DNA of 64,000 nt from the NCBI RefSeq assembly GCF_036507355.1, contig NZ_AP027878.1. The stretch is one strand, 5' to 3'. The position numbers and the translations under genes are program-made. The notes under the pieces were generated by a model. That model ran no database searches and was not told the origin of the DNA. It worked only from the letters and a program-made list of their open reading frames with translations. This document shows, piece after piece, positions 57,714 through 58,444 of the stretch; the stretch's first letter is position 1, and the number at the start of each line of letters is the position of its first letter. Origin of the DNA: Escherichia coli. Lineage in GTDB: Bacteria; Pseudomonadota; Gammaproteobacteria; Enterobacterales; Enterobacteriaceae.

Positions 57714-57892
57714 TTATTAACCTCATTACTGGTTGGGAAATAAGGTTGCGGTGCCGGGTGCTTCCCGGTGTCCTTTAGCTGGTTATCCACCGTGGACGGG
57801 GAAATAAGGAGAAATAATGGACAGATATAACCATTTCCCCGCGTGCGCTTAGCCGCATTCACCGCAACGGAAAGAGCATTCCTGGTGGACCT

Positions 57893-57917
57893 GTAGATTG
57901 GGATATGAACCCGTTAC
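57893..57917. repeat. 25-bp direct repeat, copy 1 (GTAGATTGGGATATGAACCCGTTAC)
   Basis: 24/25 identical to 58173-58197. Confidence 0.6.
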
Positions 57918-58172
57918 AGGAGAATGCTCTTACCTGTTACGTGCTCCGTTTCGTGGAGCTAACGGCGGGTGATCGGGCCGCACCAGACTGGACTTATTTC
58001 AGCGTTATGCTCATGCCAGAGAATCAAACTGTGATGGTCGGTGCTGAACTCCGACACAGGGTTGTAGCAAGCCCCGCAAAGCGCGCACTACTGTAGTTGC
58101 GGCACATCAGCCTGTGCATTCACCACAATGTTGAGAACACTGGTTGTCACGCTGCAACGCAACATTTATTCG

Positions 58173-58197
58173 TAGATTGGGATATGACCCCGTTACG
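58173..58197. repeat. 25-bp direct repeat, copy 2
   Basis: Matches 57893-57917; flanked by an 18-bp inverted repeat (58128-58145 / 58197-58214). Confidence 0.6.
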
Positions 58198-58444
58198 CCA
58201 GTGTTCTCAACGTTGTAGTGCCGGTTACGGTTCCGGCCAGGCCTCTTCCTCAACGGGGTGTTCTCCATACGGACTACCGTTTATTGGTCGTTCCTGCGGT
58301 TTATGTTGTGAAGCCAGATGCTTATCTTCTGGTTGCTTCAAAGAGCTGCACTTCATCACAACGGTAAGGGTACTTCGTAGGGATTCGAACCCTCTGCCAA
58401 GCTCGGCGATCTCCGACGTCGCAAAATACCCTTACCTGTTGTGC

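Follow-up and report, generated by a model that had tools for sequence, protein, structure and literature searches.

The block at positions 57720–58444 of the window (the whole analysed stretch of 64,000 nucleotides (nt) of Escherichia coli contig NZ_AP027878.1) lies in phage P1 DNA: the window is reverse-complemented P1, and 57000–59300 is 100% identical to P1 (AF234173) in reverse orientation. According to the P1 GenBank record, the ban operon is read leftwards, on the minus strand in window coordinates, from a C1-controlled promoter/operator (near 59250) through a dicF-like region, tRNA-Asn (GUU; 58523..58598), tRNA-Thr (UGU; 58445..58520) and the block into tciA, tciB, tciC, trnI and ban. 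Both tRNAs are on the minus strand, were called by ARAGORN and matched the Rfam tRNA model with 74.5 and 72.9 bits, respectively. The P7 GenBank record states that the tRNAs are under the control of the operator. Within this C1-repressed leader, the block forms about 700 nt of untranslated minus-strand RNA. It consists of three tandem RNA modules, each a long hairpin followed by a further folded domain, between tRNA-Thr and tciA; a fourth hairpin lies upstream of tRNA-Asn. The order on the transcript is promoter, dicF-like region, hairpin E4, tRNA-Asn, tRNA-Thr, hairpins E3, E2 and E1, tciABC, trnI and ban. An initial annotation, made from the sequence alone, had described the block as repeat-rich and non-coding with a tRNA-like element; its repeats belong to four paralogous long hairpins, of which they form the arms and apical loops.

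Hairpins and follow-on domains in the P1 leader

All four hairpins fold on the minus strand. E4 (58802..58886; −40.0 kcal/mol, z −4.6), the paralogue upstream of the tRNA pair, has the 5′ arm CACAACAGGUAAGGGCGCUGG and the 3′ arm CAGCGUCCUUUCCUGUUGCG. E3 (58347..58443; −42.3 kcal/mol, z −4.7) is separated by one base from the 3′ CCA of tRNA-Thr and has a basal helix of about 20 base pairs (bp). E2 (58121..58220; −49.2 kcal/mol, z −6.3) has a nearly perfect basal helix of 23 bp. The stem of E1 (57863..57941; −35.8 kcal/mol, z −4.0), GGUAAGAGCAUUC / GAAUGCUCUUUCC, is the family consensus. The z-scores compare RNAfold energies with those of dinucleotide shuffles (n = 200 per hairpin). For none of the four hairpins did a shuffle fold as well as the native sequence (0/200). 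The helix base, (G)CACAAC...GUUGYG, is common to E1–E4, and the remaining stem differs by paired changes; the stem arms are GGUAAGGGUAUUU / AAGUACCCUUACC in E3, GGUAAGGGCGCUGG / CAGCGUCCUUUCC in E4 and GUUGAGAACACUGG / CCAGUGUUCUCAAC in E2. A 5′-arm motif had three matches in the window (E1, E3 and E4) against 0.03 expected, and the 3′-arm motif was matched by E1 and E2. E4, also found by the 5′-arm search, is conserved in phages D6 and Ro157c2. The P1 hairpins have the features of a wider family: a variable tip on a helix of about 18–21 bp, which has the base CACAAC/GUUGUG and, following AAC, either a mismatch or a bulged A. Two of them were included in the family-wide analysis of helix length, with basal helices of 19 bp each, and both E1 and E3 are members of the covarying stem alignment described below.

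The 25-bp direct repeat of the initial annotation is the inner apical hairpin common to E1 and E2 (GUAACGGGGUCAUAUCCCAAUCUAC in E2). Its two copies are 24/25 identical and lie at 57893–57917 and 58172–58196, the second not at 58173 as given. The inverted repeat is the E2 stem and exceeds the 18 bp assigned to it, spanning 58121–58143 / 58198–58220 (23 nt, 91% complementarity). The tRNA-like element is E3. Its outer stem is real, with arms of 13 nt (58363–58375 / 58424–58436, 92%) instead of 10 bp, and RNAfold extends it to the basal helix at 58347–58443. What had been called a canonical T-arm is a T-arm-like hairpin, AGGG-UUCGAAU-CCCU, with a stem of 4 bp and a 7-nt loop; a canonical stem has 5 bp. 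Together with a small hairpin it forms the apical insert of E3, and its 3′ strand runs directly into the 3′ arm. E3 is about 85% identical to a hairpin of Enterobacter phage BUCT554, where the same insert is found within a stem of different sequence with compensating changes. The motif said to recur at 58868 does so exactly (CCCTTACCTGTTGTGC at 58429–58444 and 58868–58883) and is the 16-nt 5′ arm common to E3 and E4. The tRNA-like element has indeed no cloverleaf: in 57720–58444, neither ARAGORN nor the Rfam tRNA model, at the gathering score or with E relaxed to 10, found a tRNA, and the calls of both were limited to the three known tRNAs. The proposal of structured RNAs was borne out, on the transcribed strand and for a family in many phages. 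The Rfam scan and the comparison of homologous regions that had been suggested as checks yielded a sub-threshold match to the small RNA (sRNA) STnc100 and strong covariation of the stems across phages. The fourth copy (of which only the 16-nt arm was noticed), the follow-on domains, the relationship to STnc100 and the wide distribution had been overlooked.

Directly after each of E1, E2 and E3 follow GGUGAAU (GAUGAAG in E3) and a further domain. The domains are multi-branched and closed by UGUGGUG/CACCACA. The family arrangement, GGUGAAU with a domain closed by CACCACA(AC), is present after E1, E2 and, in a minimal form, E3; it is absent after E4, where the 3′ flank differs. The minimal domain after E3 (58295..58352, minus strand, 58 nt) comprises GUUGUGAUGAAG, two small hairpins, the second with the loop AGAUAAGCA, and CUUCACAAC. 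The same arrangement of 60 nt occurs in Salmonella phage Sasha, D6 and Ro157c2, and BLAST matches were to Sashavirus and P22-like phages. The type-1 domain after E2 (58026..58129, minus strand) is composed of AUUGUGGUGAAU, the hairpin GCACAGGCUGAUGUGC, a variable centre, the hairpin GUCGGAGUUCAGCACCGAC and CAUCACAG. It fits the conserved 5′ and 3′ frames from other phages, with a compensated last hairpin (GCCGG/CCGGC to GUCGG/CCGAC). No Rfam model detected this domain type (GCGCAGGCUGAUGCGC ... GCCGGAGAUCAGCACCGGC).

The type-2 domain after E1 (57744..57867, minus strand) is closed by UUGCGGUG/CACCGCAA and forms the 5′ untranslated region (UTR) of tciA. Rfam STnc100 (RF02076) matched 57747–57866 on the minus strand with 33.4 bits and E 4e-5 over model positions 31–147 of 206. 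The structural features of STnc100 are present: the closing UGGUG/CACCA, several hairpins and a last hairpin CCGGG-loop-CCCGG. The minimum-free-energy (MFE) fold contains the closing helix and the inner hairpins. In the consensus fold with seven relatives, the closing helix has eight pairs, including one compensated from C-G to U-A, and both terminal hairpins are kept. The P1 unit adjoining tciA probably belongs, in diverged form, to the STnc100/PasD group of Hfq-binding prophage sRNAs. Throughout the domain family, the closing helix is conserved together with the first and last hairpins; no alignment of the centre is possible. The topology is that of a cloverleaf: a closing helix of 7–8 bp, a first hairpin, a variable centre and a last hairpin of 5 bp that abuts the closing helix. 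Whole hairpin-plus-domain units of P1 fold with z of about −4, and CACAAC recurs at both unit ends. The P1 block is a phage leader RNA of a known kind to which a so far undescribed hairpin is added. In the searchable literature, neither the long hairpin nor the type-1 domain nor this P1 region as RNA was found described. Rfam, searched at gathering and permissive thresholds over the window and 16 related loci, yielded no match on the long hairpins apart from spurious microRNA-precursor matches on long stems and one STnc100 match overlapping a 3′ arm. In one viral contig (L111), STnc100 matches over the full length of the model, and the match sets in about 9 nt ahead of a family hairpin's 3′ arm, which places the start of the annotated sRNA within the hairpin. 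In some others (L016, L062, L072, L089), a follow-on domain beginning with GUUGUGGUGAAUGCGCAGGC stands directly after a good TTGACA-type promoter without the 5′ hairpin arm; the domain can thus stand alone.

At the end of the leader, a 9-bp hairpin, AACCUUAUU / AAUGAGGUU (57720..57748, minus strand), was predicted in both the MFE and the centroid fold of the 246-nt leader. It may sequester the Shine-Dalgarno sequence of tciA (ATG at 57713). CCUUAUUUCCC occurs twice on the minus strand, inside the STnc100-like domain (57795–57806) and just after it (57720–57748), the second copy being the 5′ side of this predicted hairpin. The upstream GGGGAAAUGG could pair with either copy, and a switch by alternative pairing is possible.

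Spacer modules precede E2 and E1 on the minus strand. The first (58221..58294) ends in the small hairpin CCGGAACCGUAACCGG, which also precedes the copy in phage Sasha, and shares 87% identity over 107 nt with an intergenic leader of Citrobacter phage phiNP. The second (57942..58017), with the small hairpin CUCCACGAAACGGAG at its end, has a counterpart of 82–84% identity in Klebsiella lambdoid prophages; there the module is flanked, in the late leader, by a tRNA and a family hairpin. The consensus 3′ arm CAGUGCUCUUUCCGUUG (57863–57885 in E1 of P1, minus strand) contains UGCUCUUU, and a 5-bp hairpin, GCGCA-GGCUGA-UGCGC, follows 14 nt later. UGCUCUUU is the core of the boxA (Nus factor) motif of rrn operons and lambda, and the hairpin is reminiscent of boxB. 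This boxA-like sequence sits in modules of early and late leaders, where nut sites occur. It is buried in a stable stem and is absent from divergent, compensated stems.

Selection on pairing and distribution of the modules

Pairs were counted in 33 distinct stems of a single register, with 500 shuffles and slid-partner controls. Of the cells, 95.2% were paired against 88.2% in shuffles, and 10/19 pairs had changed on both sides against 4.1 ± 1.1. None of the 500 shuffles reached any of the five pairing measures, and pairing fell to 36–63% in the slid-partner controls. A first ungapped MAFFT alignment of all stems had mixed two registers, with and without the bulged A, which inflated the counts of pair types; it was replaced by the single-register subset and by an alignment-free arm-swap test. 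For this test, the conserved base was stripped from 19 divergent stems. Pairing of cognate arms gave −18.7 kcal/mol and that of non-cognate arms −7.7 ± 3.9 kcal/mol; the cognate arm was the best partner in 15 of the 19 stems and among the top three in all 19. In the first alignment, wobble pairs comprised 97 G·U versus 8 A·C. This excess indicates that the structure acts as RNA, on the minus strand in P1. The protein-binding sites on DNA considered in the initial annotation are disfavoured, as are duplex or cruciform DNA, because a strand bias of wobbles is not expected there. The basal helix has a median length of 19 bp (interquartile range 18–20, range 15–26) and encloses an apical part of 8 to 93 nt. 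Two irregularities are conserved in the commonest stem class: an A bulged out after AAC and, three pairs further in, a U·U mismatch.

The module family is widespread among unrelated phages of Enterobacterales and largely unannotated, and it overlaps STnc100/PasD. The general unit reads ACAACAGGUAAGAGCAUUG, a variable insert, CAGUGCUCUUWCCGUUGUGGUGAAUGC and a domain ending in ...GCCGGAGAUCAGCACCGGCCACCACAAC. It was read in intergenic leaders of BUCT554 (epsilon15-like), Citrobacter phage phiNP, Salmonella phage Sasha and a Klebsiella lambdoid phage, in the last between a Q-like gene and a holin gene. The BUCT554 unit matches 157 phage records, with nothing annotated beneath nearly all matches. 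The unit lies between pR'/qut and the annotated late terminator in HK620 and downstream of cI in a Shiga toxin (Stx) 2a phage. Other carriers are HK629, HK633, mEp460, Stx2 phages, the N4-like phage IME11, Ackermannviridae and phages of Erwinia and Hafnia. Cores of 40 nt are nearly identical in otherwise unrelated phages, temperate and lytic. In the annotated phages inspected, the modules are on the same strand as the downstream genes. IMG/VR was scanned with the 14-mer GTTGTGGTGAATGC, and family copies were counted among the matches listed, which include at least about 60 distinct true copies. The same 14-mer in contigs of bacterial genomes gave, among the matches listed, almost only chance matches in unrelated phyla, which are no guide to the taxonomic range of the family. 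Two of the listed loci, one from Superficieibacter, passed the filter for hairpin and flank as family members; a match in Escherichia albertii was too near the contig end for this filter. A third hairpin variant (L015, L029, L062, L063 and others; ST64B/phiNP-like) reads ...AACAGAGAAGAGCAUC, apical ACGGGCUCAUAACCCAAUCC and then GGUGUUCUUCUCUGUUUUGUGGAGAAAC. It stands directly after a terminator and directly before the first open reading frame (ORF) of the early-left operon, with the same apical motif as E1 and E2 of P1.

The modules are associated with tRNA genes. A tRNA lies within 300 nt of 8/58 dereplicated copies, against 0.7 expected for random positions in the same contigs, and all 14 tRNAs within 1 kb of a module are co-oriented with it. 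In P1, P7, D6, Ro157c2 and CMS-2020a, a hairpin starts 0–1 nt after the CCA of a tRNA; domains end 4–6 nt before a tRNA. For T-arm-like hairpins, defined as a UUCRANN loop on a perfect 5-bp stem, the density is 2.2 per kb within apical inserts; the remainder of these contigs, after masking of tRNA genes, has 0.022 per kb, an enrichment of about 100-fold in the inserts. The 4-bp stem in the E3 insert of P1 is outside this count. About 10% of the distinct inserts contain such a hairpin, in most cases at the 3′ end of the insert and a few nucleotides from the 3′ arm. The T arm and acceptor stem of a tRNA have the same topology. A tRNA-derived or tRNA-mimicking origin of this small piece is possible. 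Klebsiella phage ST147-VIM1phi7.2 has an unannotated tRNA (L006 2420–2491; Rfam 61 bits, anticodon loop CUUCCAA) in the late leader from a Q-like gene to the holin gene, about 90 nt upstream of a family hairpin.

The differences among P1 relatives involve whole modules, and their breakpoints fall at repeats or module borders; the modules are recombination hot spots. JL22 has an extra domain and hairpin after E3. In P7, D6 and CMS-2020a, a tRNA-Ser(UGA) lies between a domain and the E1-type hairpin, and in Ro157c2 and CMS-2020a a tRNA-Tyr lies between tRNA-Asn and tRNA-Thr. Relatives richer in tRNAs, as anticipated in the initial annotation, thus exist, with the extra genes placed between the modules and not in their stead. 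The tRNA-Ser(UGA), called as class II by ARAGORN in P7 (L134 1296–1382) and CMS-2020a (L135 1983–2069), is situated 4 nt after the domain and directly before the E1-type hairpin. The P7 record does not list it, and the annotation of the gene in D6 comes with a caveat. Ro157c2 has a different E3 tip and an E1 tip without the GGG...CCC stem, and the outer hairpin is kept. In Salmonella phage SJ46, recombination of one 25-bp repeat with the other has removed 58171..57918.

Elsewhere in the operon, the tRNA at 56938–57013 (minus strand) was called tRNA-Met (CAU) by ARAGORN and is tRNA-Ile2 (trnI, ileX-like) in the P1 record; as such it would require a lysidine modification. A scan of both strands of 57600–59350 revealed no sigma-70-like promoter. 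No terminator-like site was present in 57600–58900, and the sole one in the scan of 57600–59350, a hairpin with a U-tract at 59090..59071 (minus strand), lies directly 3′ of the dicF-like region and follows the ban promoter at a distance of about 170 nt. For the tRNAs, tciABC and ban to be transcribed, read-through or antitermination at this site would consequently be required. A perfect 12-nt inverted repeat (58310–58321 / 58958–58969; one mismatch in D6) brackets E4, both tRNAs and E3 on the transcript. It was judged marginal, at a rough estimate of about 0.1 chance pairs in the 1.7 kb searched.

Interpretation of the block and alternative readings

Any interpretation has to accommodate the structures, their covariation, the acting strand, the membership in a widespread phage family and the association with tRNA genes. 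The block is a chain of folded RNA modules that probably act as punctuation and scaffolds within the ban leader RNA. The first part of each unit is the hairpin, with a basal helix of about 19–23 bp, the base CACAAC...GUUGUG and a hypervariable tip. The second is the multi-branched domain with its UGUGGUG/CACCACA closure, conserved first and last hairpins and hypervariable centre. Helices of two turns are recognised by RNase III, as in the T7 and lambda sites. The P1 helices may be cut by host ribonucleases, with RNase III cleaving within the helix, or may block them. Helix length (median 19 bp) and position in a polycistronic leader are compatible with an RNase III substrate. A helix could also shield the ends left by excision of an adjacent tRNA against RNase E and exonucleases; where the hairpin starts exactly at such an end, the downstream RNA may be protected from 5′-end-dependent decay. 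In this way, the transcript would be resolved into separate, stabilised RNAs: tRNAs, sRNA-like pieces and the tciABC-trnI-ban mRNA. Dense folding may keep Rho off 1.5 kb of untranslated RNA, and the conserved frames may be scaffolds that display variable base-pairing sequences, as in STnc100 and PasD.

Several observations weigh against this interpretation. The MFE fold of the E2 unit lacks the family closing helix, and the STnc100 match stays below the Rfam gathering score for membership (33.4 versus 47 bits). In SJ46 (L133, junction at about 1149–1173), the 5′ arm of E2 is joined to the non-matching 3′ arm of E1 and the hairpin is destroyed; individual copies are therefore dispensable. SJ46 is a natural broken-hairpin mutant in which the STnc100-like domain and tciA are still present. 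Most family stems have one consensus sequence, so that part of the conservation could reflect recent horizontal spread and not selection. Many family copies are placed directly after an intrinsic terminator instead of a tRNA, which a role tied only to tRNA excision fails to explain. In the searchable literature, no transcript, cleavage-site or binding data for the P1 region were found, and helix length and position are the whole basis for a putative processing by RNase III, RNase E or RNase P.

It is conceivable, at a modest probability, that the units are mainly precursors of trans-acting, Hfq-dependent sRNAs of the STnc100/PasD type, with frames for stability and Hfq binding and inserts as seeds. 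The Rfam match adjoining tciA and the design of a conserved frame with a variable centre in both hairpin and domain point in this direction. According to published work, STnc100 and PasD are prophage sRNAs of related structure whose seeds and targets differ, and Q, lysis genes, TerB genes and tRNAs are found nearby. Hfq, on which PasD depends, stabilises it, and PasD is abundant in RIL-seq; STnc100 is found in late leaders of Stx phages, 75 nt downstream of stx2. In the P1vir transcriptome, tciA was over-induced in an hfq mutant host. The P1 copies, however, lack the intrinsic terminator and the U-tract of Pas sRNAs, and the E1 domain runs directly into the ribosome-binding site of tciA. The sRNA function overlaps with punctuation and scaffolding and does not exclude it.

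The breakpoints at module borders in SJ46, JL22, P7, D6, CMS-2020a and Ro157c2, the near-identical 40-nt cores in unrelated temperate and lytic phages and the CACAAC at both unit ends would also fit mobile or recombinogenic linkers at the DNA level, such as miniature inverted-repeat elements or T4-type stem-loop cassettes, which swap tRNA genes and small cargo and whose RNA fold is incidental. This is rather unlikely: compensating substitutions maintain the pairing of the stems, the preponderance of G·U over A·C wobbles fits RNA and would be unexpected in DNA, duplex or cruciform, tRNAs within 1 kb and downstream genes share the orientation of the modules, and no transposase or target-site duplication was seen.

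A further, quite doubtful option sees the units as an undescribed class of modular phage RNA that travels with tRNA genes, either as tRNA mimics or decoys or as an anti-Rho device of the Nus/boxA type. As mimics, the two-turn helices and the tRNA-shaped frame would display hypervariable inserts, often T hairpins resembling the tRNA elbow, and might engage enzymes of tRNA processing or modification or host defence nucleases that target tRNAs. Integron attC-like sites, retron non-coding RNA, type III antitoxin repeats and mimics of CRISPR repeats were rejected: associated integrase, reverse transcriptase and toxin genes are missing, and the motifs do not match.

Decay of tRNA genes from a once larger cluster, which the initial annotation had offered for the block as a whole, is very improbable. 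The extra tRNA-Ser(UGA) and tRNA-Tyr genes of the relatives, the T-arm-like hairpin of E3 and the enrichment of such hairpins in family inserts would agree with it. The absence of a cloverleaf and the silence of ARAGORN and of the tRNA model even at E up to 10 do not, and the extra tRNAs lie between the modules. The covarying hairpin architecture is conserved in phages without nearby tRNAs, and the E1 of Ro157c2 retains the outer hairpin without the GGG...CCC inner stem. The T-arm-like hairpin itself is the apical insert of E3 and is found in BUCT554 inside a differently sequenced, compensated stem.

The hardly credible reading as plus-strand genes for Upl (57905–58096, 63 codons) and Plp (putative lipoprotein; 58097–58474, 125 codons), GenBank ORFs antisense to the modules for which the original annotators predicted promoters, conflicts with the absence of a Pfam family for either, the TTG start of plp and its 30-nt overlap with tRNA-Thr, the deletion of upl in SJ46 and its replacement in P7 and D6, the loss of the plp start in P7 and D6 and the interruption of its frame in Ro157c2, the missing annotation of both in P7, the lack of a sigma-70-like promoter in the scanned region and, for the upl part, the absence of any gene call beneath the query 57740–58020 in RefSeq P1-like plasmids. 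This query matches in 621/5426 E. coli genomes. Both are very probably not genes, in line with the initial view that the block has no convincing ORF. A minus-strand ORF of 44 codons at 58225–58359 was rejected for a stop at codon 7 in Ro157c2.

P1 is a textbook phage, yet this 700-bp stretch appears in GenBank as two hypothetical proteins, and reading it as RNA corrects the annotation. Previously, only STnc100 and PasD were known as fragments of the family and were treated as ordinary Hfq sRNAs. The module links P1 to early and late leaders of many phages of medical relevance, among them Stx-converting phages, Klebsiella and Salmonella prophages and lytic phages considered for therapy. A shared function in RNA processing or related to tRNAs is suggested by three features, namely a covarying hairpin that keeps its length while its tip varies, a frame shaped like a tRNA and the link to tRNA genes; the easy genetics of P1 make this function directly testable there. 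The family also offers a ready explanation for the shuffling of phage tRNA genes and small cargo between genomes.

Comparison with known RNA and DNA elements

The closest relatives of the P1 domain are STnc100 (RF02076), PasD1 and PasD2 of Salmonella, enterohaemorrhagic and enteropathogenic E. coli. They share with it the closure by (U)GGUGAAU...CACC(A), the final CCGGGAGGCACCCGG hairpin, the location in untranslated leaders of phage operons and a nearby TerB-family gene, which in P1 is directly downstream. In P1, by contrast, the domain is a 5′ UTR without a terminator, and the Rfam model does not include the long hairpin.

Hairpins of about 20 bp and two turns with a conserved bulge or mismatch are familiar RNase III sites: the early R sites of T7, the N-leader and sib of lambda and the processing sites of dicBF/DicF. 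As in the module family, these are repeated along an early transcript between functional RNAs and are paralogous within one phage. P1 even has a dicF-like region in the same leader. The T7 sites differ in that they have neither large hypervariable tips nor a fixed follow-on domain.

Mimics of tRNA, that is YrlA, the tRNA-like domain of tmRNA and the RNase P-processed C4 RNA of P1 and P7, resemble the family in a long stem of distant segments that encloses a T-arm-like module, with the 3′ strand of the T hairpin running into the 3′ arm, in the neighbourhood of tRNA genes and in a domain of cloverleaf topology. The P1 modules differ by the lack of a nearby Ro gene and of a CCA end and by a T-like stem of 4 bp. 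The YrlA model (RF02553) had no match on the hairpins; its sole match in the region, 25.6 bits against a gathering score of 69, was on the two real tRNAs.

At the DNA level, T4-type PeSL cassettes and the moron or module boundaries of lambdoid phages are likewise short conserved stem-loops that flank variable cargo at recombination breakpoints. Their presumed role is that of patches of DNA homology with promoters. In the P1 modules, unlike in PeSL cassettes, the pairing itself is selected and strand-specific.

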